This document shows, piece by piece, positions 1 to 11,376 of a DNA stretch of 29,537 nt (position 1 is its first letter; each line of letters starts with the position of its first letter). Origin of the DNA: a virus (Duplodnaviria > Caudoviricetes). The stretch lies in the IMG/VR virus record IMGVR_UViG_3300020045_007296, positions 1-29,537 of that record; one strand, written 5' to 3'. The notes below the pieces were generated by a model, which was given only the letters and a program-made list of their open reading frames with translations, did not search any database and had not been told where the DNA came from. The translations under genes were made by a program, and so were the position numbers.

Positions 1-317
1 TGGTCGCAATCAAGTGTATCCGTCTCATGGATAATCTCAGGCTCTATATTAGCCAGCAATTCGCCATAAAACGCATTTACCTTGTCAACACTATCCTTCC
101 ATATTTTATAATCCGTGCTATCTATTATCCGGATGGTCCCGGTTGTAACACATGGAAACTCTCCCCTAAATATTGGAAGCGCAATCAACGGCTTTTTATC
201 AATCGCCTTGTGTACCTGTTTGGTTGCCTTGCTGTCTGTGTAGCATCCGGAAAAAACGAACACTAACAGTGCCCCAAGTAAGACAGCTATTAGCATCGCA
301 AAATTTTTGTTTTTCAT
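1..317 (-). CDS. Lipoprotein, putative spanin-like lysis protein (3' end outside window)
   Basis: Not in the ORF track. Hand-translated from ATG at 317: MKNKNFAMLIAVLLGALLVFVFSG-CYTDSKATKQ..., open to the window edge. It has a lipobox-like FSG|C and lies directly after the holin-like gene. Confidence 0.65.
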   Translation of the reverse strand, partial: MKNKNFAMLIAVLLGALLVFVFSGCYTDSKATKQVHKAIDKKPLIALPIFRGEFPCVTTGTIRIIDSTDYKIWKDSVDKVNAFYGELLANIEPEIIHETDTLDCD

Positions 318-320
318 AAA

Positions 321-692
321 TTACTTTTTAGCAGGAAATTTATCTTTAACCATGTCCGAAACAAATTCCTGAATGATAATAAATATTGAAGCCAGCTTTT
401 TACTGATAAGGCCAATTAAGAACCCGGCCAATGCATTGTTTTCCGGATCAATCCATTTTTGAGAAAACCTGATTGACAGAATGATTAATAAAAAGCTACT
501 GACTAAGCCTTTTATCTCATCACTCAGGAAGTACGACCAACTAAATTTAATCGGGCTGCTTATGCTGTTTGGGTCCCGTTTGGTAGTACCTATGAGAAAC
601 ATTGTAAACGCCGTTAGGCAGGCAATAAAAAGTATTGCTGAAAACTGTACACCCGAAAGTGTACCGAGTAATATTGACCAAAATTCTTTCAT
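321..692 (-). CDS. Holin-like small membrane protein (~3 TM)
   Basis: Track ORF 321..749; the likely start is ATG 692 (MKEFWSILLG...), which avoids overlap with the upstream gene. Hydrophobic segments, charged C-terminus (KDKFPAKK), position before the lipoprotein. Confidence 0.6.
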   Translation of the reverse strand: MKEFWSILLGTLSGVQFSAILFIACLTAFTMFLIGTTKRDPNSISSPIKFSWSYFLSDEIKGLVSSFLLIILSIRFSQKWIDPENNALAGFLIGLISKKLASIFIIIQEFVSDMVKDKFPAKK

Positions 693-703
693 AATTTTAT
701 ATT

Positions 704-1132
704 TTAAACTGCTTTTAAATTGCTTTCTTTTTTGCCGTATATGAACCAAATGATTATCACTGCATCGGCAACTGCATTGAAAAAATATGTTTCTATTGTT
801 GCGGTATAGTTACAGATGAACGAAAGGAAATCCATAATATGATATTCAACTCCCAGCGCACAAATGAAAAACCAAAACCGGGAATACCTTTTTAAAACCA
901 TTGCCAGCACAAGCCAAACAATTATCCATAAATTCAGGTCAAATAAATTCTTAAACCACCAGGCAATCGTTATTTTTTCGTGACAAGAAGGAAACAGGAA
1001 AAGGTTAACGTAAGTGGTTAAGGCCGGTGGCCATAAAGTCCACATGATGGACGGCACTAATGTAAGTGCATAAGCTAACGCAATTACGCCAGCCAGTATC
1101 CTGTCTCTTCTATCAAATTTTATTTCCCACAT
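704..1132 (-). CDS. Multi-pass (4-5 TM) membrane protein of unknown function
   Basis: 142 aa, Trp/Phe-rich hydrophobic helices. Its ATG immediately follows the TAA of the polyproline peptide ORF (TAAATG). Confidence 0.75.
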   Translation of the reverse strand: MWEIKFDRRDRILAGVIALAYALTLVPSIMWTLWPPALTTYVNLFLFPSCHEKITIAWWFKNLFDLNLWIIVWLVLAMVLKRYSRFWFFICALGVEYHIMDFLSFICNYTATIETYFFNAVADAVIIIWFIYGKKESNLKAV

Positions 1133-1252
1133 TTAAACACCTCTTGGTTTAATAGGAGGGTTTACCGGCGGAATTGGTGATTCTTCCTCCGGTGATGTTG
1201 TTGGAGGTGGTGGTGGATCATCAACCAGTTTTACTTTTTTTTCTTTTGCCAT
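1133..1252 (-). CDS. 39-aa proline-rich peptide MAKEKKVKLVDDPPPPPTTSPEEESPIPPVNPPIKPRGV
   Basis: Hand-translated, below the track cutoff. A-rich context (TTTAAAT-ATG), ATG GCA AAA GAA start, and the stop abuts the next ATG. Confidence 0.65.
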   Translation of the reverse strand: MAKEKKVKLVDDPPPPPTTSPEEESPIPPVNPPIKPRGV

Positions 1253-1394
1253 ATTTAAATTTTAATATTTTACAGCGTTTAAAAACCGTTTTATAATTCT
1301 GGGCAATCTTAAAAAGCGCATATAGTGATAGCCCGAAAATTAGCGACCGTAAAGCCTTTATTGCTACGGTCATTGCATAGGTAATAAGATCCAT
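1221..1394 (-). CDS. 57-aa single-TM protein with basic tail
   Basis: Hand-translated: MDLITYAMTVAIKALRSLIFGLSLYALFKIAQNYKTVFKRCKILKFKYGKRKKSKTG. The ATG directly follows the TGA of the PAS gene, and the ORF fills the gap. Confidence 0.5.
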   Translation of the reverse strand: MDLITYAMTVAIKALRSLIFGLSLYALFKIAQNYKTVFKRCKILKFKYGKRKKSKTG

Positions 1395-1931
1395 TCATAA
1401 TTTCTTTTTGTCGAATATTTGCCCTATAATTTCAATCACTTCGCCCTTTTCATTTCTTATTGGCTCCATCCTGCACACTGCGTCTACTATTACCCCGGTT
1501 ATAATATGCTTAATCCTAATGTCTTTATTGTAGCTGGCAGGATGCTTAATCGCTTCTTCTACAATCTTTTCTATCCGTACCGCATCCTCATCCGGGATAG
1601 CCACCATGAACCGCATTCCCAATACACTTTGCAGATCGTTAAAGCCTGTCATTTCAAAGAAAGCCGGGTTTACAATATTGAATTCCATCTTTTCATTAAG
1701 CCTGAAAATAGGGTTCTTGTAAACTCTCAATACCGCATGTTGTACATTTTCAGATATTACAGCCTTAGATTTAAGCTCATCAATTTCTTTTTTTTGCTTT
1801 TCGTATTCCGCTGGCATATTGTACATTTTCTTTGCCCATTCAAAAGCTGGTTTTCTGTACTTTACTACAATCCACCCAACAACACCGGAAATTGCCCCCT
1901 TTGGTATAATGGTAGACCAATCAATAGCCAT
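1395..1931 (-). CDS. Membrane-anchored PAS-domain protein without output domain
   Basis: N-terminal hydrophobic segment (IIPKGAISGVVGWIVV), short coiled coil, then PAS core IFRLNEKMEFNIVNPAFFEMTGF...VLG...IPDED and PAC-like end PIRNEKGEVIEIIGQIFD. Confidence 0.85.
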   Translation of the reverse strand: MAIDWSTIIPKGAISGVVGWIVVKYRKPAFEWAKKMYNMPAEYEKQKKEIDELKSKAVISENVQHAVLRVYKNPIFRLNEKMEFNIVNPAFFEMTGFNDLQSVLGMRFMVAIPDEDAVRIEKIVEEAIKHPASYNKDIRIKHIITGVIVDAVCRMEPIRNEKGEVIEIIGQIFDKKKL

Positions 1932-2130
1932 ATATTAACTCTTTAAGCCATGATTGGAAAGCCTTTGTCCACTCTGCCACCTTGTTTGATAATAACCCGG
2001 CTATTACTGTTGTGATTATTGCCACAAAAGGAAACGCCCACGGGTTAAACATCCAGTCAGGAACGTTAAAAAAAACGGTACTGATAAATGAGACGGCTGC
2101 TGTTCCTGCGCTTATATCCGAAAAACTCAT
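1921..2130 (-). CDS. Small 2-TM membrane protein (holin/antiholin-like)
   Basis: 69 aa, two hydrophobic stretches, overlaps both neighbours, lysis-region position. Confidence 0.55.
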   Translation of the reverse strand: MSFSDISAGTAAVSFISTVFFNVPDWMFNPWAFPFVAIITTVIAGLLSNKVAEWTKAFQSWLKELIYGY

Positions 2131-2353
2131 CTTTCTTTTTTTTTAAATCTTTAATAAATTGGTTTATAAAATCTACCACCCCGTTACCAATACCGAAAAA
2201 TACCCCATTTGAAAAGTAGGCCATGTTATAAAGTAGCATTGCTTTCACAATATCAATCGGCTCCATGTCTTTGAAATCAACTTTAAAAGCAGACATGAAT
2301 ATTCCAAGCGCCAGGCAAATGAAAAATTTCCGTATGGTTTTATCTTTTGTCAA
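2066..2353 (-). CDS. Small membrane protein (holin-like)
   Basis: 95 aa, TTG start directly after the upstream TAA, ~2 hydrophobic segments and a Lys-rich C-terminal part. Confidence 0.55.
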   Translation of the reverse strand: MTKDKTIRKFFICLALGIFMSAFKVDFKDMEPIDIVKAMLLYNMAYFSNGVFFGIGNGVVDFINQFIKDLKKKKDEFFGYKRRNSSRLIYQYRFF

Positions 2354-4384
2354 TTAAGGAATTATTTTATACCCAAATATTTTATGTGTTTGGCCTACAC
2401 TAATAGTTCCATTTGCATAAAAAAGCATTGATGAAAAAGCGGGTATGTAGGTGCTGTTATTTCTAACGTTCCCGAGTGCATCTTTTTTACTGTACCCGCT
2501 AAAACTATACAATGCCGGCGCTGCTGTTGTATTACTCTGGAATGTGTGCGCCTCAGTACTCAGGTTAACACTGATTGCTTCCTTCGCACTGAATGCCTTA
2601 AAGGTTGTAAGGTCCATCGGTACGCCGTCAATAAATGTTCCACCGGCTGTTGCGTGATACCAATAATGAAATGGTTTTGTTGCATCTGTTCGGTAATAAT
2701 TAGAATCCAGATGGTTAAATATTGCCCGGAAATCAGTTTGGATATCCACCGTTACAGGGTCATTCAGTGAGCCGTTCCAGTAAAATATATTGTTGATTGT
2801 GCCGTAAACGATATTGTGCGTGATCGTATCATTTCGCATTAAAGGAGCACCGGGGAAACGCTGTAATTTAAACCCGCTGGCTGCATTATATATAACGTTT
2901 CCGCTAAACCTGCAGTTTGATATTTCATTTGCGAAAACCCCGCCGCCGGGAATGTTTACGATTGTATTATTTATTGCCTTTATATACTTACTTGCCCCAT
3001 CCCAATACAGCCCATGACAACTACCTTCATCTGCTGCATGGGCTGGCACACCGTAACCGGTGTTTATTCCGTCCGTTACTATATTACCGTCAACAAGGCG
3101 GTTTGTTTTTGTCACGTCTGCATAAGAATAAATACCCCCGCAATCCCCTTTTATCATCCCAAACTTTGTAACCCAATTATTTTTTATCAGTATATCATTC
3201 CCGTTGAATTTGATCCCATTGAAAGCTACTGAATCCACCCGGTTACCCTGAACTGTTGCCCCGTAATCGCTTCCTACTGAAATAGCATTATCCATATCAT
3301 CTGATGACCGTCCCATGCCTGCAAATAAGCCGATTTTGCTGACTGTGTTATTGAGTATAGTAGTGGTGCCGGTATTCATGTTTAACGCACTGATTCCGTC
3401 TGAAAGTGAGTTTGTGACTAAATTATTTTCAACCAAAAGGTTTGATATGAACCAAAAAAAGGAAGTTCGTTTATTATTATTCAGTTCGCAATTCTTCAGT
3501 GTTATATTGCTCCCGTCCTGGCTCCAAATTGCTACCTGGTTAGCGCCTTCAATCTTTACATTTTGGATGGTAATCCCACTTCGCGCTGTGTAACCGGTTC
3601 CGCCGCCTCCCAGCATGACCGGGTAATTAAGATTTGAATACTGGATAACTTTCGTGTTTGGATTTACTGCTCCAAAGTAAATAGATAGTCTTTTTGTAGC
3701 CTTATCAATAAACCATTCCCCGTATTGATCGAGTGTGCGAATGTCATCCTGAATAAAGTAACCATAATTTACGTTCCCAAGGTGGGGGGATGGGTTATCG
3801 TAAATGATTGTATTACCTGAGTGTGAAGTAATGCGGCCTGTATCAATTACCCAATCCCATTTGCGAATTACAACCTGGGCCCCGGTCCAGTTTGGGGTTC
3901 CTGAAAGCTGATTGTCTGTTATGGAAGGAGTTGCGGCGGTTGATTCATAAGTCCGATAACCGCCGTTTGCGCTGTCTACGTTTGGCGTCCGGCCAATTCT
4001 TTGCAATTCACCGTCGATCGTTACAATTTGCAACTGGCCAACGGCTTCTGCTGCATCTGCATACCATATTCCACCCCCGGCATTTGTCCATCCTGTTAGT
4101 GTTTTTAACCCTGAAATTGTTGGCAGATTTCCGGTGCTATAAGCATCAATGCCTATGTCGTTCCTGTTAGGGATAAACGCCTCATTCCACACCTCCCCAC
4201 GTTTTAAATAAATGGTATGGGTGCCTACCGGATAGCTAAAAGTATTCGCTTTATTGATTGTTTTCCATGCTGCACCGGTTGAAGTGCCTGCGTTGCCATC
4301 ATTGCCACCGGTAAAGTCCACGTAGTAGTCTGTCGCCCCGGATGTGGATGAAATCAAAAGTAATATGGTGAGTAGCTTTATCAT
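2354..4384 (-). CDS. Secreted right-handed parallel beta-helix (pectin-lyase-like) protein, putative depolymerase/tailspike
   Basis: Signal peptide MIKLLTILLLISSTSGA|T, N-terminal YYVD..GNDGNAGTS..AWKTI motif, repeated Asn-ladder strands (ITIQNVKI, LVENNLV, TVQGNRV, IKNNWV, VDGNIV). Confidence 0.8.
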   Translation of the reverse strand: MIKLLTILLLISSTSGATDYYVDFTGGNDGNAGTSTGAAWKTINKANTFSYPVGTHTIYLKRGEVWNEAFIPNRNDIGIDAYSTGNLPTISGLKTLTGWTNAGGGIWYADAAEAVGQLQIVTIDGELQRIGRTPNVDSANGGYRTYESTAATPSITDNQLSGTPNWTGAQVVIRKWDWVIDTGRITSHSGNTIIYDNPSPHLGNVNYGYFIQDDIRTLDQYGEWFIDKATKRLSIYFGAVNPNTKVIQYSNLNYPVMLGGGGTGYTARSGITIQNVKIEGANQVAIWSQDGSNITLKNCELNNNKRTSFFWFISNLLVENNLVTNSLSDGISALNMNTGTTTILNNTVSKIGLFAGMGRSSDDMDNAISVGSDYGATVQGNRVDSVAFNGIKFNGNDILIKNNWVTKFGMIKGDCGGIYSYADVTKTNRLVDGNIVTDGINTGYGVPAHAADEGSCHGLYWDGASKYIKAINNTIVNIPGGGVFANEISNCRFSGNVIYNAASGFKLQRFPGAPLMRNDTITHNIVYGTINNIFYWNGSLNDPVTVDIQTDFRAIFNHLDSNYYRTDATKPFHYWYHATAGGTFIDGVPMDLTTFKAFSAKEAISVNLSTEAHTFQSNTTAAPALYSFSGYSKKDALGNVRNNSTYIPAFSSMLFYANGTISVGQTHKIFGYKIIP

Positions 4385-4689
4385 TTGATTAAAAAAGTTG
4401 AATCATTTACTTTAGTTATGTTTCCTTGCAGGTAAGAAACTTTCTGATTGCTCTTTACAAGAGACGGGATGCTTTCTCTTAATACCCGGATCGAATCACT
4501 TAATTGCTCAATCTTTTTATCCTTCTCTGCGTACAATACAACCAGCGTCACCATGGCCGTATTTATCTGAGAAATACTTGTCTGCATTGCGGTGTTCTTT
4601 GCCTTTAAATCTGCAATTTGTTGGGCGGTTGTTTGAGCTCCGCAATTGAATACAGCCAGTAAAAAAATGATAATTAAAATGTTTTTCAT
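4381..4689 (-). CDS. Small secreted coiled-coil protein
   Basis: Signal peptide MKNILIIIFLLAVFNCGA|Q, heptad-like QQIADLKAKNTAMQTSISQIN, ATGA overlaps with neighbours. Confidence 0.7.
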   Translation of the reverse strand: MKNILIIIFLLAVFNCGAQTTAQQIADLKAKNTAMQTSISQINTAMVTLVVLYAEKDKKIEQLSDSIRVLRESIPSLVKSNQKVSYLQGNITKVNDSTFLIK

Positions 4690-5105
4690 TGTATGTAAGT
4701 TTTAAACCCAAATGAGGCCCATGATATTTTGCAAAAATTAGCCGCAATAAATAACCTTCCATCGTTCAACCTGGTTCCGGCCTCAATCCGAAAAGCCGGG
4801 TGCCATTCTGTTATTTTTGCGATCTTATAATTATTTGCTTCATTGTAATCTGCTAAACTTTCAACCCGGTAATAGCCTACACCGATACTCGCTGTTAAAT
4901 GCTCATTGAGCGAATACCCGATTAATAAAGAACTTGTATTCGGCACGGTGGCACTCATTAAGGGCAAGCGATAATTAAACGTTACTTCGGCTTGTTTGGC
5001 CTTGTATCCAATTGCCCACCCGGCACCTTTTGTTGTGGCCTCCATTCCTAAGAATGCCTGGCCAAATGATGCGAACGGGAATAATATGAATACTAATAAT
5101 TTCAA
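4686..5105 (-). CDS. Small secreted beta-rich protein, possible outer-membrane beta-barrel
   Basis: Signal peptide MKLLVFILFPFASFG|Q, alternating amphipathic strands (LTASIGVGYY, FRIEAGTRL, LFIAANF), aromatic C-terminal strand SFGFKTYIQ. Confidence 0.6.
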   Translation of the reverse strand: MKLLVFILFPFASFGQAFLGMEATTKGAGWAIGYKAKQAEVTFNYRLPLMSATVPNTSSLLIGYSLNEHLTASIGVGYYRVESLADYNEANNYKIAKITEWHPAFRIEAGTRLNDGRLFIAANFCKISWASFGFKTYIQ

Positions 5106-5506
5106 TTCAATATTTTAAAGTAAATGAACAATGAAAGCGCAAAACAAAGCGCCTTAACTCCTACATGCTGCCAAAGTTTTAACCTTTGCAAAAAGTTATC
5201 AAACTTTGCATCGTCCTTGCCGTCCTCTGACCCGGTAAAGAACGGTTTTTCACGCCTGAGTAAGTTGTAAGCAATATCGAATACCGGCCACCAAAAACAA
5301 GCCATTGCAATAACTGACAACGGTAAAGCAAACACGAAATTGGCGGCTGAATTTTGAGCCGCCAAAATTGCAACAGGTACGCATACTATTCCCACAATAA
5401 TTATTTCAATCTTGTGATTTATTGCCACTTTCTTTTTCCATTGCCTTAAATCATACCACAACTTTGCAGCGAGTATGAGAAGAAATAAAATTGTTGCTAT
5501 TATCAT
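5102..5506 (-). CDS. Multi-TM membrane protein of unknown function
   Basis: 134 aa, about 4 hydrophobic segments, ATGA-coupled to the next gene. Confidence 0.7.
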   Translation of the reverse strand: MIIATILFLLILAAKLWYDLRQWKKKVAINHKIEIIIVGIVCVPVAILAAQNSAANFVFALPLSVIAMACFWWPVFDIAYNLLRREKPFFTGSEDGKDDAKFDNFLQRLKLWQHVGVKALCFALSLFIYFKILN

Positions 5507-5513
5507 ATTGTAA

Positions 5514-6980
5514 TTATTGCCAGTTTATTAAAAGTTGTACATCTCCTGCTACTACTGCTGTTGCATCTGTTACACCTGCTGCATTTGTGATTGCATAAGC
5601 TATACCAGTACCGAATGTTAACCCTACACCAAACGATAGCTCTTTACTTGAAGTTGCTGGTATAGCGATTACCAAAACCGGCACATCGGTTCCTACTGTT
5701 GGGGCACTTGCTTTGTTATAAATCCTAACATACTTTGTTGCTGCCGATGTATTCATTGCGCTTATTGAATATATCGTTCCGGCAGATGCCTTTGCAAATG
5801 CAGCATTGGTTGTTGCTGCACTGTTTACTGCGGTTGAGGTATTTCCATTAATATTTTTACCGGATAAATACGTAGGCCATGCACTGCCAATTGCTGCTGC
5901 TGTTCCCTGGTTAATAGTACCAGTTACTGTTGTAGCAGGAGTATTTAATACATTCACTCCTACTCCGTAATTTGCCCCGCTTTGTTCGCCACCTGCAATT
6001 AAAACTTTATTATTTGTAAATTCCTCTACAGAAAGAAACCCAATGGTAAAAGTTGTAGTGGTGGCCGGATTTGTTGTGCCGTTTAACACTCGTATAAAAA
6101 GGAATAAATTTTCATCTGCATCTGGTATGTTCTCTATTCTACTTCCTCTTGCAGTGAACTGCACTGCTGCGTTTGTTGCAACAAGAGCATCTGAATAACC
6201 AACCATGCTACCATCTGAAACAGTTTGCACCACATGGCCGGGTGATGCAGACGTGACAGTTGTTATTGTGGCGTCACCTGATGCCCATCCTTTCCTTTGT
6301 GCATCCACTAAAGCAGATGTAGCGGTTGTTCCTGTGTAAAGAACTCTGTGATAATTCCACCCCCAAATTGTTAAAGTTCCCGACCCTGACGCTGGCCATC
6401 CTGCTACGGTATAAGTAACTGTTTGTCCTGCTACACTTGCTATAGCAAATCTTCCGGGAATGCCTGATGCTCCTGCTATTACAGATAGGTACATAAACTG
6501 CCCAACGTTGGCAGATGTAAACGGATTGTTGGTAAAAGTAACGGTTACACTTGTTGCAGAGTTTATTGTATAAGATAACCCTTCCCCAATTAAATCAGCC
6601 AATTCATAACTAAAATTATTATTAGCTATACGCTGTGATAAAGTTGTTTTAAATCTTGCCGTAAATGCTCCGCTAAATGATTTTACACTTTTAAAAATAG
6701 TCTCACTATTTGCAGACGCCCCGGTTGTAACTATTAAATTACCTGATGCTTGTGATACTGCCATTCCACTACCTGTTTGCAAGGTGGTCATGAGCGGTGC
6801 AATTAACCCTGAACCTACCTCGCTAAAGCTACAACGCCATAGTGTTGCTGGGGCTTGCCTTACAATTTGCCCTTTAGCATTTACAGAAGGGTTTGTTGTA
6901 GATAAATTTGTACCATTATAAACTTGCGCTTGTGTTAAAAACGAAAGGCTAATTAGTATTACTGTTATTACTGTTTTCAT
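5514..6980 (-). CDS. Secreted Thr/Ala/Gly-rich beta-sandwich protein, putative virion appendage
   Basis: Likely start ATG 6980, 2 nt after the upstream stop: MKTVITVILISLSFLTQA|Q. Beta-strand-rich; the C-terminal module (..KASAGTIYSISAMNTSAATKYVRIYNKASAPTVG..) resembles modules of phage structural proteins. Confidence 0.7.
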   Translation of the reverse strand: MKTVITVILISLSFLTQAQVYNGTNLSTTNPSVNAKGQIVRQAPATLWRCSFSEVGSGLIAPLMTTLQTGSGMAVSQASGNLIVTTGASANSETIFKSVKSFSGAFTARFKTTLSQRIANNNFSYELADLIGEGLSYTINSATSVTVTFTNNPFTSANVGQFMYLSVIAGASGIPGRFAIASVAGQTVTYTVAGWPASGSGTLTIWGWNYHRVLYTGTTATSALVDAQRKGWASGDATITTVTSASPGHVVQTVSDGSMVGYSDALVATNAAVQFTARGSRIENIPDADENLFLFIRVLNGTTNPATTTTFTIGFLSVEEFTNNKVLIAGGEQSGANYGVGVNVLNTPATTVTGTINQGTAAAIGSAWPTYLSGKNINGNTSTAVNSAATTNAAFAKASAGTIYSISAMNTSAATKYVRIYNKASAPTVGTDVPVLVIAIPATSSKELSFGVGLTFGTGIAYAITNAAGVTDATAVVAGDVQLLINWQ

Positions 6981-6982
6981 AT

Positions 6983-9562
6983 TTAATTTATTACTGTCCA
7001 TTTGTTATTTAATCTAATTATCTGAGTAGAAACATTTGATAAGATTGTTGTAACGGTCGTTGTTTGATCGGCCAGGTAAACCGTTTCCCCGGAGAATGTC
7101 CACGCAAACCCTGTTTCGTTGTTAACGATTGTGATATAATTCCCGTTGGATGCCGTTGGCATTATAAAGTTTCTGCCTGTACTTAGTGTGGCCGCTGGCA
7201 AATAATTAACTGAGTTTGCAACTGCTGTCAAGTTTGCATTTGTGCCGGTTACATACGTTACCTTCTGATATAAATTACCCGATACATCCGTTAAGTCTCC
7301 ATTATTGGTTACGATCAATCGCTTGCTGCCATTTGTCCATATACTTGCCTCAGTACTACTTAGCTGAAAGGATTGTAGGTTTGTTGAAGGATCGGCAAAG
7401 TTTGATGCATATACATTGCCACTAAGCACGCCCAGGCCTCCCTGTATATTAATATTGCTTGCGGCACCTACTGAATTTAAAGACGAAATTGTTAAGCCAT
7501 CTGCACCGCCAAATTTTAATGTACCTTGGCCTGGGGTTTTTACTTCAAGTGCGTCTGTGGATGGGGTTACGTTTATGCCTACTTTATTTGCCGCATATTG
7601 AATTATACCATTACCAGTTGCGGTACCAACAAAAGCAGTTGTTGCAAGCTGAGTGCTATTGTCGCCCGCTATAGCTGTTGGCCCATAAACTTCCTCTTTA
7701 AAAATTGCATTGAATGCATTTGGGCTTGTAGAAATTAATCCTTTTGGTTTTAATTTGAAAGGCTGGTAATTGCCAATTGTATTGGCAACTATGCCTGTAA
7801 ATTTTGCAATACCAGTTGCATTCAGGTGTGTAGCATCTAAAAACACAGAAGCATCGATTCTTGGATCAAACTGTATGTCCTGGTCAACTACAAAATCATA
7901 TAATTCAGGATGATTTCTGATAGAATCATTGAGCGCTAACCTATAAGTTTCTTTTGGAGAGGTAAGTGTTGTAGAATGTATAATTGTAAAGGCGACAACC
8001 TTATACCCATCATTTCTGGACTGTCCCCATAAGTATTTTAAATTGGTAAAAACGCTGTCGGCTGTAATACCAGCCATAATATCATTGATACCAGCATAAA
8101 GGAAAAACCAGTAATCCTGCCCCTTTGCAGTAGGTTTTGCTGTGTGTGCCTCTGTGGCGTACTCTGTTTTCATTTGGGCGGTGGTTTCGCCCCCGACAGC
8201 GTAATTTTTTTGACTTGCCTTTGCAAAATAAGACAGCGAATCCGGTAGCAAATAAGGCCAATCATCCCCATCATTTGAATAGCTGTCACCCTCAACGATA
8301 TACCTTCTGTATTGAAAACTATCAACACTAAGCGCACCAACTACCCTTACCTCTGTATTGCCAATGCTGCCTATTTTTATTTGATTTGGTTTGTCATTAT
8401 CCTGGTTATTGCCTATAACAATGCTGTTGCTTCTATCTACATCTTTTGAAAGCGTAAATGAACCACTTCCGGCACCCGCTATTGTTGAAAGCGTTAAAGT
8501 GTTTGCAGATGCAATCGTAAACTGGTATATGGTTGCTGTTGTAAGCCCGGACAATGTTGTTCCTGAAATAACATCGTATTTTAAATTTACTTTTTGGCCT
8601 ATAGTTCCAAATCCGTGCGAAGTGATTGTAATTGTAGTACCGCTAACATCTGCCGATACAAATGATTTGACTGATCCAATTGTAAAAATATTACCGGCAT
8701 TGTTACCATAAGCTGAGCGATCTGTCCAGTTGTTGTTTTGCAAAACCAGGTAACCCAATCCGGATGAGTAAGGGCCAACATTGTTTTGAAGCACATAAGA
8801 TCCAAAACCATGACAGTTAATTCCGGTATTGTTTTGAAGTGCGTAATTGCCAAATCCGTTTGCAAAATTACCGGTGTTATTAAGCATTGTAAGGTAACCA
8901 AACCCATTTGAGTGCGACGCTGTATTATTAGCCAATACGCCATAACCGAGACCGGATGAAAAAGCCCCACTATTGTTTTGAAGTGCATAAGAGCCATACC
9001 CGTTTGCATAGGTAGCGGTATTGTTTTCTAAAGCGGATATTCCAAACCCGTTTGCATCACGGCCAGAGTTATTCCGTAAAGCATTTTCCCCGGCACCAAA
9101 ATTTGTTGCTGCTGAAAATGCACTTCCTGTCCAGTAGAACGGCTGGTCAGTTATCATATTCCTGCCTGCGATCTTTACAAACTTGCTTTGATTTTTTGCG
9201 GTGGTGGTTATCAGGTCAGGTGTAAAACTTGCCGCTGTTTGTAAGCTATCCCTTGTTTTTGTAAGCCCCCCTCTGCTTGCAAAACCGGTTGCATCAATTG
9301 AATCCGCTATGCCTAATTTAAGTGCCAATGCTGATAATCTTGCACGGTCATTTATTTCAGTTTGATAATTAGCTAACATAGTTGCTGTGTCTGACTTATT
9401 TAATTTACCTGAAATACTCGCTGTATTTGCGTTGATATCTGCCCGTAATGCTGTTGTGTCAACAGTAGTGCCGCCCCCGGCAAGTTTTACCAGCTTTACA
9501 ACCGGCTGAGCAGTTGCAGTTAATGAAAGAAAGATTGTAAGTATTGTTATGAGTTGTTTCAT
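6983..9562 (-). CDS. Tail-fibre-like protein with signal peptide, beta-solenoid repeats and SGNH/GDSL hydrolase domain
   Basis: Signal peptide ...LSLTATA|Q, 13-aa repeats (NGFGxxALxNNTG), SGNH blocks VEGDSY / AVGGET / AGIND / DATH, phage fibre motif PTAIAGDNSTQLATTAFV. Confidence 0.8.
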   Translation of the reverse strand: MKQLITILTIFLSLTATAQPVVKLVKLAGGGTTVDTTALRADINANTASISGKLNKSDTATMLANYQTEINDRARLSALALKLGIADSIDATGFASRGGLTKTRDSLQTAASFTPDLITTTAKNQSKFVKIAGRNMITDQPFYWTGSAFSAATNFGAGENALRNNSGRDANGFGISALENNTATYANGYGSYALQNNSGAFSSGLGYGVLANNTASHSNGFGYLTMLNNTGNFANGFGNYALQNNTGINCHGFGSYVLQNNVGPYSSGLGYLVLQNNNWTDRSAYGNNAGNIFTIGSVKSFVSADVSGTTITITSHGFGTIGQKVNLKYDVISGTTLSGLTTATIYQFTIASANTLTLSTIAGAGSGSFTLSKDVDRSNSIVIGNNQDNDKPNQIKIGSIGNTEVRVVGALSVDSFQYRRYIVEGDSYSNDGDDWPYLLPDSLSYFAKASQKNYAVGGETTAQMKTEYATEAHTAKPTAKGQDYWFFLYAGINDIMAGITADSVFTNLKYLWGQSRNDGYKVVAFTIIHSTTLTSPKETYRLALNDSIRNHPELYDFVVDQDIQFDPRIDASVFLDATHLNATGIAKFTGIVANTIGNYQPFKLKPKGLISTSPNAFNAIFKEEVYGPTAIAGDNSTQLATTAFVGTATGNGIIQYAANKVGINVTPSTDALEVKTPGQGTLKFGGADGLTISSLNSVGAASNINIQGGLGVLSGNVYASNFADPSTNLQSFQLSSTEASIWTNGSKRLIVTNNGDLTDVSGNLYQKVTYVTGTNANLTAVANSVNYLPAATLSTGRNFIMPTASNGNYITIVNNETGFAWTFSGETVYLADQTTTVTTILSNVSTQIIRLNNKWTVIN
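8690..9105 (-). repeat. Degenerate coding tandem repeat (~39-nt unit, 13 aa) in the fibre gene
   Basis: About 10 units of (N/S)G(F/Y/L)GxxxLxNNxx in the translation; boundaries approximate. Confidence 0.7.
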
Positions 9563-9564
9563 GC

Positions 9565-11376
9565 TTAGTTGATTGATCTTGAAAGTTCATAGAAATTAGT
9601 TCCGTCAAACTTTAGCGTTAAGGTTGTGCCGGTTGTTGTTGTAAGGTTACCAGCCAGTATTAAATTGCTGCCATCGGTTACAGTTAACGCCCCGTCAAAA
9701 ATTAAAGTAATTGTTGCCCCGGCAGTTAACACGCTCCCTGAAATGCTTGTAATGCCTGTTGTGCCTGTTACATGAAAGCTGTTGCCCGTTGCGGTTATGG
9801 TGGATGCACTGGCTACGTTTGTACCGTGATAAAGAGATGTTACGCCGTCTGATGTGGTTCGTATTTTAACTACTCCGTCACCTGAAGCTATTGCTATGTT
9901 ATTTGAAACATTTCCGATACTTATATTTGAGCCTAAAATGGTATTGCCTGAACCGCTTGTTATGCCATTACCAGAGGCAATGCCAATAACTGTATTGTAT
10001 GTTGTTGCTGAAGATGTTATATTAACTAATGATGAATCACCAATAGCAATGTTATAAGATGAATTTACAGCTTGCCATAATGCTTTTGAACCAATTGCAA
10101 CATTATTATGGCCAATGGTATTAAAGCTAAGCGATGCTGCCCCAAAGGAGTTATTATTATAACCTGTTGTATTCGATTTTAATGACTGAAATCCTGATGA
10201 AGTATTATAATACCCAGATAAATTATTATATAATGCTTCCTTCCCTAAGGCAGCATTTTCTTTCCCAATCGTATTTCTAAATAAAGAGAAAGCGCCAAAT
10301 GCCGAATTTCCTTCGCCTGTTGTATTGTATCTTAATGATGAAGTTCCAGCTCCTACATTTGCACTTCCTGTAGTATTAGAATACATACTTTCTCCGCCAA
10401 GTGCTACATTGCTTGCGCCAGTTGTGTTTGAATTAAGCGATATATACCCAAGTGCCATGTTATAGACCCCAGTCATAGTAGAGTTTCCGGAATTACCAAA
10501 AAAGTAATTAAAAGAAGATGGGTTAGCAGTAATTACATTTACTCCGTTGTATTTATAAGCTGAATCCTGTGATACATTTATATTCCCAACCACGTCAATT
10601 TTTTCAGTAGGTAATGATTTATTGAATCCTACATTATTTGCATAGTTTAATCCTCCGGTAACATTTACCCATTGCGAAAATTTATTAACACTACCCGGCC
10701 CAATTGAATCTGTATTTAATGCGGGGAAATTGCCGTATCCATTAAGATACTTTGCTGTCGTATTTGGGTATGTAATGCCTGATCCGCCACTACCGCCACC
10801 GCCAATAAGCGAAACCCGCCAAATGGTTTTAAGGCTTATATAGTCTACATAAGAATTATCAACTGCTGTATCTATGCGATAGATGGCGTTGGAATCTACG
10901 CCACCGGTAGAATTAATTACCGTGGTGTCTCCATCATAAGAAAAAACTGTATTATCCCCGGCCTTTAAATAAGCAAGTGCAACTGGAAAAGAATCAACCC
11001 CAATACCTCCGGCATAATTAATATATCTTGTTGAATCGAAGTTGTAGCGGGTTGAATCGTATCCTGAGCCTCCGCCAGACGGGGCAACCCAATTATACCC
11101 GTTCCATGTATATATTTTACCTGAACTATAAGCTATAGCACCTGAATCTTTTACTGCTAATTGCGGCTTTGTTAATGGTATTGTAAAAGCATTTTTTACG
11201 CCAAATACACCATATTCTATGCGTCCTGATAGTGAAGTTTTAGTCCTTGTAGAATCATAAGGAGTTTGCGCACCTGCGCCAAGTGAAAGAAAGAAAAGAG
11301 CCGTTAAGATTGCGAGTGACAAATTTCTATTTTGTAAACTCTTAATCGAAAACAGCCCGTGAAAGGCTTTTTTCAT
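9565..11376 (-). CDS. Tail-fibre/adhesin-like protein with signal peptide and 14-aa NxAxG repeats
   Basis: Signal peptide ...LTALFFLSLGAGA|Q, repeats such as NVALGGESMYSNTTG / NSAFGAFSLFRNTIG / NVAIGSKAL, Gly linkers, fibre-like NVGFNKSLPTEKIDVVGNI. Confidence 0.75.
   Translation of the reverse strand: MKKAFHGLFSIKSLQNRNLSLAILTALFFLSLGAGAQTPYDSTRTKTSLSGRIEYGVFGVKNAFTIPLTKPQLAVKDSGAIAYSSGKIYTWNGYNWVAPSGGGSGYDSTRYNFDSTRYINYAGGIGVDSFPVALAYLKAGDNTVFSYDGDTTVINSTGGVDSNAIYRIDTAVDNSYVDYISLKTIWRVSLIGGGGSGGSGITYPNTTAKYLNGYGNFPALNTDSIGPGSVNKFSQWVNVTGGLNYANNVGFNKSLPTEKIDVVGNINVSQDSAYKYNGVNVITANPSSFNYFFGNSGNSTMTGVYNMALGYISLNSNTTGASNVALGGESMYSNTTGSANVGAGTSSLRYNTTGEGNSAFGAFSLFRNTIGKENAALGKEALYNNLSGYYNTSSGFQSLKSNTTGYNNNSFGAASLSFNTIGHNNVAIGSKALWQAVNSSYNIAIGDSSLVNITSSATTYNTVIGIASGNGITSGSGNTILGSNISIGNVSNNIAIASGDGVVKIRTTSDGVTSLYHGTNVASASTITATGNSFHVTGTTGITSISGSVLTAGATITLIFDGALTVTDGSNLILAGNLTTTTGTTLTLKFDGTNFYELSRSIN
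9930..10500 (-). repeat. Degenerate coding tandem repeat (~42-nt unit, 14 aa) in the fibre gene
   Basis: About 12 units of NxxxGxxxLxxNTxG in the translation; boundaries approximate. Confidence 0.7.

Follow-up and report, generated by a model that had tools for sequence, protein, structure and literature searches.

A PAS protein and a proline-rich micro-ORF paired with a four-helix membrane protein as possible regulators of lysis timing in a tailed-phage gene block

The window analysed here is the virus record IMGVR_UViG_3300020045_007296 (IMG/VR; Caudoviricetes), whose whole assembly comprises 29,537 bases and ends inside a lipoprotein gene. Its first 2353 positions carry a block of seven small open reading frames (ORFs) on the minus strand, and these small genes are likely the start of a phage lysis cluster. 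Two parts of the block, a 178-amino-acid (aa) protein with a PAS domain and a proline-rich micro-ORF directly followed by the gene of a 142-aa four-transmembrane (4-TM) protein, are likely two separately inherited add-ons rather than one system. We tentatively read them as two optional lysis regulators, one a PAS sensor in the cytoplasm and the other a membrane regulator to which a polyproline leader is coupled. These extras would likely tune the timing of the host burst and not carry messages from phage to phage; the effect on lysis timing is suggested by gene position. Signal-dependent lysis timing is understood in few phages only. If the reading is true, a PAS domain tied into lysis control, together with a micro-ORF/four-helix module without a known family or fold, would be new intracellular inputs to lysis timing, and the genes of both modules are small and individually testable.

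On the minus strand, the gene order of the window runs from terminase, portal, capsid, tail and tape-measure genes (PHROG matches) through fibre-like genes to the small-gene block. All seven small genes that the original prediction, made from the letters of the window, had placed between the last fibre gene and the lipoprotein were present, in the order given. The features were as follows.

2354..4384, minus strand: 676-aa beta-helix protein with a hydrophobic N-terminal leader (PF13229, E 5.9e-13); the boundary gene outside the module and the last fibre-like gene.
2066..2353, minus strand: 95-aa ORF with a TTG start and one clear hydrophobic segment; no family match, 3' end uncertain.
1921..2130, minus strand: 69-aa protein with two hydrophobic segments (hydropathy).
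1395..1931, minus strand: 178-aa PAS protein with an N-terminal helix at about residues 5-23, a helical linker and a PAS domain at residues 72-172 (Pfam PAS and PAS_3 above cut-off).
1221..1394, minus strand: 57-aa protein with a single hydrophobic segment and a tail of basic residues; its gene shares 32 nucleotides (nt) with the start of the peptide ORF.
1133..1252, minus strand: 39-aa micro-ORF that has 12 prolines and lacks a signal sequence; the 4-TM start follows directly on its stop.
704..1132, minus strand: 142-aa four-helix membrane protein; 50 family representatives, model with a predicted local distance difference test score (pLDDT) of 90.
321..692, minus strand: 123-aa three-segment membrane protein, likely a holin (phrog_6384, E 0.0048; same-slot homolog in the related record G001).
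3..317, minus strand: lipoprotein truncated where the record ends, and a probable unimolecular spanin; hydrophobic leader ending in Cys.

The slot of these genes had been taken for a lysis-gene cluster, and this was borne out by gene neighbourhoods in relatives. In six records related by capsid (G001, G004, G006 contig 499, G008, G009 and G010), the lysis-like regions were picked out by eye. In the closest phage by capsid (G001, 70%), a beta-helix gene 33% identical to that of the window stands at the equivalent place, and it is followed downstream by genes for a 91-aa helix-coiled-coil protein, for a homolog (124 aa) of the window's 123-aa protein, for a lipoprotein of 215 aa whose C-terminus carries a helix, and for a 192-aa protein. 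The 123-aa protein and its same-slot homolog shared 21% identity (z 7.0, 0/500 shuffles). The 123-aa protein had been described as a holin-like protein with three transmembrane segments; the three hydrophobic segments stood, while the holin assignment draws on the weak phrog_6384 match and on position, with Pfam matching none. The protein is likely a holin. The 192-aa protein of G001 (L021, 1371-1949) is a candidate endolysin by position only; it matched phrog_3000, a family of unknown function, at E 3.4e-6, and a Pfam and NCBIfam scan of it gave no match.

The window lipoprotein begins with a hydrophobic leader that closes, as judged by eye, with Ser-Gly-Cys (residues 23-25), in agreement with a lipoprotein signal. 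In the accessible part of one account, a unimolecular spanin is defined by a lipoprotein signal together with a C-terminal membrane helix (PMC6139136). The lysis regions of G001, G004, G009 and G010 each hold a protein with a Cys-ending leader and a C-terminal hydrophobic segment, and the window lipoprotein is likely a unimolecular spanin. A likeness of its sequence to the lipoproteins of G001 or G334 was rejected (z 1.4 and -0.1, respectively). No endolysin is visible in the window, as had been noted before, because the record stops inside the lipoprotein.

The PAS domain proposed for the 178-aa protein was confirmed. PF00989 matched residues 72-172 with an E-value of 1.5e-7 and 31.8 bits, against a curated cut-off of 22.6, and PF08447 matched the same residues with 31.3 bits against a cut-off of 25.6. 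Further, the ESM Atlas model of the protein (pLDDT 0.74) aligned to PAS-bearing proteins at TM-scores (template-modelling scores) of 0.65-0.73, as expected of a PAS fold; a separately predicted model, with a pLDDT of 41, was too poor for use. Two full-length relatives were found at 66 and 75%, and a profile search added none. The top rows of the ESM Atlas were clusters of 187-228-aa PAS proteins (0.96-0.98), one with 1142 members; judging from their few recorded members these clusters are viral, and they serve as leads without gene neighbourhoods. The PAS alignment matched 0/401 sample genomes of GTDB, and tblastn in annotated phages gave nothing useful for the PAS or the 4-TM protein.

The N-terminal stretch of the PAS protein is weakly hydrophobic (1.36) and is followed by basic residues, which suggests that the protein may be anchored in the membrane with its N-terminus outside and the PAS domain in the cytoplasm. 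In the best register, the linker is hydrophobic at 8 of 12 a/d positions. Among the family matches there was no output domain, neither enzymatic nor DNA-binding. The sole PDB match was phototropin-2 (E 0.0017). In LOV photosensors, which are PAS domains, a flavin-binding Cys motif follows the first helices; the window protein has a single Cys, at residue 153, well away from where the motif would lie, and the photosensor reading was rejected. Separately, an 88-aa helix-plus-coiled-coil protein at 188-454 of a metagenome contig (L130, described below) was weakly like the N-terminal 70 residues of the 178-aa protein (z 3.5, 5/500 shuffles). The window protein looks as if a PAS domain had been appended to the helix-coiled-coil protein common in this lysis slot. 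The six capsid-related records gave no match to the PAS alignment or to the 4-TM profile; since both modules are missing from 6/6, the PAS protein and the peptide/4-TM pair are regarded as optional extras.

The 142-aa protein had been predicted to be a membrane protein with four to five segments. Its multi-TM nature held, and hydropathy and the structure model settle on four helices; in the model the helices are long (predicted template-modelling score 0.79). Three close relatives at 59-74% seeded a profile, and the profile search gave 50 representatives at E<=0.001, the query included. An alignment of 41 of the 49 other representatives and the four seeds (n = 45, with eight length outliers excluded) showed strong conservation of W58 (45), K61 (44), Y97 (44), D101 (42), D65 (40), Y116 (40) and N108 (34). 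The basic residues favour a topology with both termini inside, and from this topology the conserved polar cluster would lie in the periplasmic half. Over the 45 members, Pfam matched four families, each in one member and none common to members. Foldseek found no fold match at E<=0.001, which does not establish a new fold; the best VIA match (Z 7.7, root-mean-square deviation 3.8, 94 aligned) was typical of helical bundles.

Searches for loci with single window proteins in viral contigs, genomes and metagenomes found nothing, and the same was true of a 4-TM subgroup alignment against viral contigs and genomes. Within the GTDB genomes searched, to which the negatives apply, the 4-TM profile matched 1/401 in the family sample, 0/401 in the order, 0/401 in the class and 1/11 in the genus sample (the same genome as the family match). 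Of 11 motif-matched viral loci, 10 were chance and one was real. A weak 4-TM match in G004 (E 0.001, with an internal stop) was dropped, as a larger profile gave no confirmation.

The coupling of the peptide to the 4-TM gene could be followed in four loci with DNA: the window, a contig of a metagenome-assembled genome (MAG; L113), a 64-kb viral contig (L127) and the metagenome contig L130. That the peptide and a multi-TM gene co-occur in relatives, as had been proposed, held in 4/4 loci. A proline-rich ORF stood directly before the 4-TM gene in each, the distance from peptide stop to 4-TM start was 0 or -4 nt, and an upstream membrane gene with a basic tail overlapped the chosen peptide start by 32, 41, 50 and 32 nt, respectively. 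Identity among the 4-TM proteins of these loci is only 23-29%, and a quick-version tree of the family places them on separate branches. The peptides measure 39 (window), 63 (L113), 76 (L127) and 55 aa (L130) and contain 12, 10, 19 and 10 prolines, respectively, in mixed codons; their net charge ranges from 0 to -7. Proline runs and position are conserved, while length and sequence vary. Consecutive proline codons occurred in all four of the short ORFs, and so did an Asn-Pro dipeptide ahead of the last proline run. A hydrophobic export signal was absent from 4/4 peptides (highest 19-residue hydropathy below 0). Across the fetched loci a proline filter was passed by 24 of 4949 short ORFs, of which three were module peptides, with one duplicate among these three; the L113 peptide missed the filter since the longest frame was used.

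Small holin-like or membrane genes precede the peptide/4-TM pair in 4/4 loci. In L127 the order is a holin-like gene, a 222-aa helix/coiled-coil protein, a 2-TM protein, the peptide, the 4-TM protein, a 60-aa membrane protein and a GH108 endolysin, the last of which (E 6e-13) lies two genes past the 4-TM gene. L113 holds a membrane protein, a 2-TM protein, the peptide, the 4-TM protein and a lipoprotein, and L130 two small membrane proteins followed by the triad of 2-TM protein, peptide and 4-TM protein. The upstream 2-TM proteins of L113, L127 and L130 are mutually homologous (z 12.3, 5.8 and 4.4). Against a profile of this family, the 69-aa protein was the best of 218 window ORFs, but with E 0.26, and against the three members it reached a z of 2.9 for one and 0.5 and -0.1 for the others; it is possibly a distant member of the family. 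The 57-aa protein had no sequence likeness to the overlapping upstream genes of L113, L127 and L130, and its type of overlap is the same. On one reading, the PAS and 57-aa genes would be insertions that separated the 2-TM gene from the peptide.

The original prediction had joined sensor, peptide and membrane proteins in one integrated system, and here the evidence points the other way. Of the proposed co-occurrence of PAS, proline peptide and multi-TM genes, the peptide/4-TM part stood and the PAS part did not: the other three triad loci lack a PAS gene (0/3), and the PAS protein and the triad are therefore not regarded as one system. The PAS alignment matched 0/5867 ORFs in 133 loci, and PF08447 had no match in the L127 record; L113 and L130 are short yet span the interval equivalent to the PAS site in the window. 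A 4700-base JGI contig is the source of one 4-TM relative, and a JGI contig of this length, probably the same one, that of one PAS relative; the PAS gene and the triad probably travel together within the window clade. Communication between phages in an arbitrium-like manner, the strongest form of that prediction, was not supported. No ORF or family match in 1-2353 is a receptor or transcription regulator gene near the peptide, and such signalling is unlikely because the peptides carry no export signal (0/4) and there is no adjacent regulator.

Under the preferred reading of two optional regulators, the PAS protein would occupy the slot of the plain helix-plus-coiled-coil protein of related phages. 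Because it lacks an enzymatic or DNA-binding output, it would act by membrane contact, shifting holin triggering on a cytoplasmic cue. The micro-ORF would be a polyproline pause leader with a chiefly cis effect: ribosomes would enter it from the overlapping upstream gene, and slow proline translation would throttle the 4-TM gene and the genes coupled behind it; this cis action is proposed because the micro-ORF is overlapped upstream and ends on the 4-TM start. The 4-TM protein, with its conserved polar residues in the predicted periplasmic half, would be a membrane lysis regulator. Consecutive prolines stall ribosomes, and mgtC is controlled via the mgtP ORF, according to the accessible text of one study (PMC5021804). 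Like the window micro-ORF, mgtP of the mgtCBR operon is a short ORF with consecutive Pro codons before membrane-protein genes. However, as far as that text describes it, mgtP works through a leader RNA stem-loop on transcription, whereas the window ORF is longer, lies internally with an overlap at either end, and shows no conserved hairpin (PMC5021804).

Several observations weigh against this reading. At the peptide/4-TM junction (91 bases) there was no conserved hairpin, with z of -1.85, -0.31, -0.5 and +0.46 against base shuffles. Charged peptides of 39-76 aa are long for leaders, the longest proline run of the window peptide lies at residues 13-17, away from the peptide end, and L113 and L127 offer earlier start codons for the peptide, which would give overlaps of 122 and 89 nt, respectively. 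Just four neighbourhoods represent a family of 50, L130 holds no spanin or endolysin, and the window clade replaces two family residues of helix 1, E25 (38/45) and H27 (29/45). For the PAS protein, the helix is only weakly hydrophobic (1.36). Moreover, the absence of the modules from the capsid-related records shows dispensability rather than function, and the window endolysin itself is unseen.

The same facts can be read in other ways. The extras might be passive accessory membrane genes that receive no signal: additional proteins of the holin or assembly type, or cargo carried along in the late operon, for instance for superinfection exclusion. PAS would then serve only for dimerisation or as a scaffold. 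For Gordonia, lysis cassettes holding as many as four membrane genes are described in the accessible part of one report (PMC9671378), and the lysis region of G004 likewise holds several small membrane genes. PAS also drives dimerisation in VqmA, according to the accessible text (PMC8284805), and the lack of both modules in the six related records suits dispensable passengers. This explanation leaves unaccounted for the proline micro-ORF and the 32-50 nt overlap kept across such divergent 4-TM proteins, as well as charged residues conserved within helices (K61 44/45, D101 42/45), and we consider it somewhat unlikely. A peptide acting in trans is less probable still, though not far-fetched. From the cytoplasmic side it would bind either the holin or the 4-TM protein; alternatively, it would be released by lysis and read at a periplasmic 4-TM pocket of neighbouring infected cells, giving a response like lysis inhibition. 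The strict pairing in 4/4 loci, the shared Asn-Pro before the last proline run, and a predicted topology that points the conserved polar residues to the periplasm would all fit, and release through lysis requires no signal peptide. However, the peptides vary widely in length, net charge and sequence, a cytoplasmic peptide and a periplasm-facing pocket are on opposite sides of the membrane, and a released peptide of such size must pass the outer membrane.

Arbitrium (aimP/aimR/aimX) employs an exported pre-peptide with a signal sequence and an adjacent cytoplasmic peptide receptor or transcription regulator. The window resembles it in a small phage peptide gene beside candidate sensing genes, and differs from it in the lack of a signal peptide, of a tetratricopeptide-repeat receptor and of a regulator, and in its late-operon position. 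That the PAS protein, the peptide and the membrane proteins form one such system with an exported signal is highly improbable: in the window these genes are coupled neighbours, and the 4-TM and PAS relatives on a probably shared JGI contig would agree with it, but the absence of PAS from the other peptide/4-TM loci, of an export signal from every peptide and of a regulator gene from the cluster, together with the position behind the tail genes, all speak against it.

Regulation of the lysis cassette in the window would be assembled from undescribed parts whose function is suggested by position. A literature search over top-ranked matches and main texts, with few subscription journals, found no PAS protein or proline micro-ORF described in a lysis cassette. 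Known systems share single features with the window. In the accessible account, gp143 of phiKZ is an optional, non-essential lysis regulator, an extra gene within the lysis cassette that shifts holin timing, as is proposed here; it is soluble and no sensor domain is described in that text, whereas the window extras are membrane proteins (PMC12894885). Between the window PAS protein and the T4 holin T system, no sequence likeness was found. The soluble domain of T4 holin T has a GAF-like fold. T with its antiholins RI and RIII offers a single-helix membrane protein plus a folded soluble domain and signal-dependent lysis timing, but according to the part of the source at hand its domain is periplasmic and binds RI, whereas the window domain is PAS and predicted to be cytoplasmic (PMC11413866). 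LysF1b of F1 mycobacteriophages, like the PAS protein, has one N-terminal helix, is predicted to be N-out/C-in and partners a second holin-like protein; the accessible text mentions no PAS domain or micro-ORF, and the host is Gram-positive (PMC13056207). In addition, VqmA-phage of vibriophage VP882 has a phage-encoded PAS domain and affects host killing, but the accessible text presents it as a PAS-HTH (helix-turn-helix) transcription factor of a lysis-lysogeny switch, whereas the window protein has no DNA-binding domain and lies among lysis genes (PMC8284805).

A wider idea, which we regard as doubtful, is that Bacteroidota phages time lysis by plug-in sensors, with PAS reading a host metabolite and the polyproline/four-helix module reading translation capacity or a peptide of lysed neighbours. 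Both stacked before the holin would make a two-input timer unlike T4 lysis inhibition or arbitrium, and the cultured Cellulophaga phage phi10:1 may carry distant, testable counterparts. A viral fold search with the 4-TM model gave no match at E<=0.001; several Bacteroidota phage proteins ranked high in it, including a 141-aa phi10:1 protein (TM-score 0.51, E 0.39), which by its length is gp097. The gene of gp097 lies just after a pectate-lyase gene, among membrane genes, five genes ahead of a GH108 endolysin. The 4-TM profile did not match gp097, and no proline micro-ORF precedes it. Further, gp099 resembles a helix-coiled-coil-PAS protein by eye only; it had no Pfam match at E<=1 and none with the PAS alignment. 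Phage phi10:1 may carry distant counterparts of both modules, the modelled fold likeness of gp097 being weak. The four phi10:1 genes gp096 to gp099 occupy 385-2143 of L135, all of them lying between the genes of the pectate lyase and the endolysin (GH108), and gp096 ends with a short proline-containing tail overlapping gp097.

With regard to the gene calls, the PAS, 142-aa and 123-aa proteins are real by conservation, and the proline peptide by position and composition. The 95-, 69- and 57-aa ORFs are predicted genes only and stand outside the conservation-backed set. The first two had been described as 2-TM proteins, which holds for the 69-aa protein but not for the 95-aa ORF, where only one hydropathy peak exceeded 1.3. 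The 95-aa ORF overlaps the following gene by 65 nt and spans an A9 tract (2144-2136); its 3' end is uncertain because a one-base slip at this tract would stop the ORF on the start codon of the next gene. The tract may be a sequencing error, phase variation or a programmed frameshift. It forms an in-frame slippery heptamer. Scans for promoters and terminators gave no more matches than expected by chance (7 vs 8.5 and 1 vs 2.0, respectively); Bacteroidota-type promoters are outside the scan models.

The host of the window phage is likely a member of Bacteroidota, because one capsid relative lies in a Segetibacter MAG and one 4-TM relative carries the label Chitinophagaceae; another capsid relative was in an Opitutaceae MAG contig. 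From one sequencing run with 5% of the window words, only short chance pieces were recovered. Outside the block, three further small genes (102, 139 and 134 aa) lie between fibre genes at 4381-5506, and the 134-aa protein is a multi-helix membrane protein without a family. At 2354-11376, the fibre-like genes (676, 495, 859 and 603 aa) and several small neighbours start with hydrophobic leaders resembling Sec signals; such leaders on fibre-like proteins were also seen in G001 and G004, and export would be unexpected for a tailed phage. Moreover, the 859-aa fibre-like protein (6983-9562) contains a GDSL esterase domain (PF13472, E 1.4e-9).

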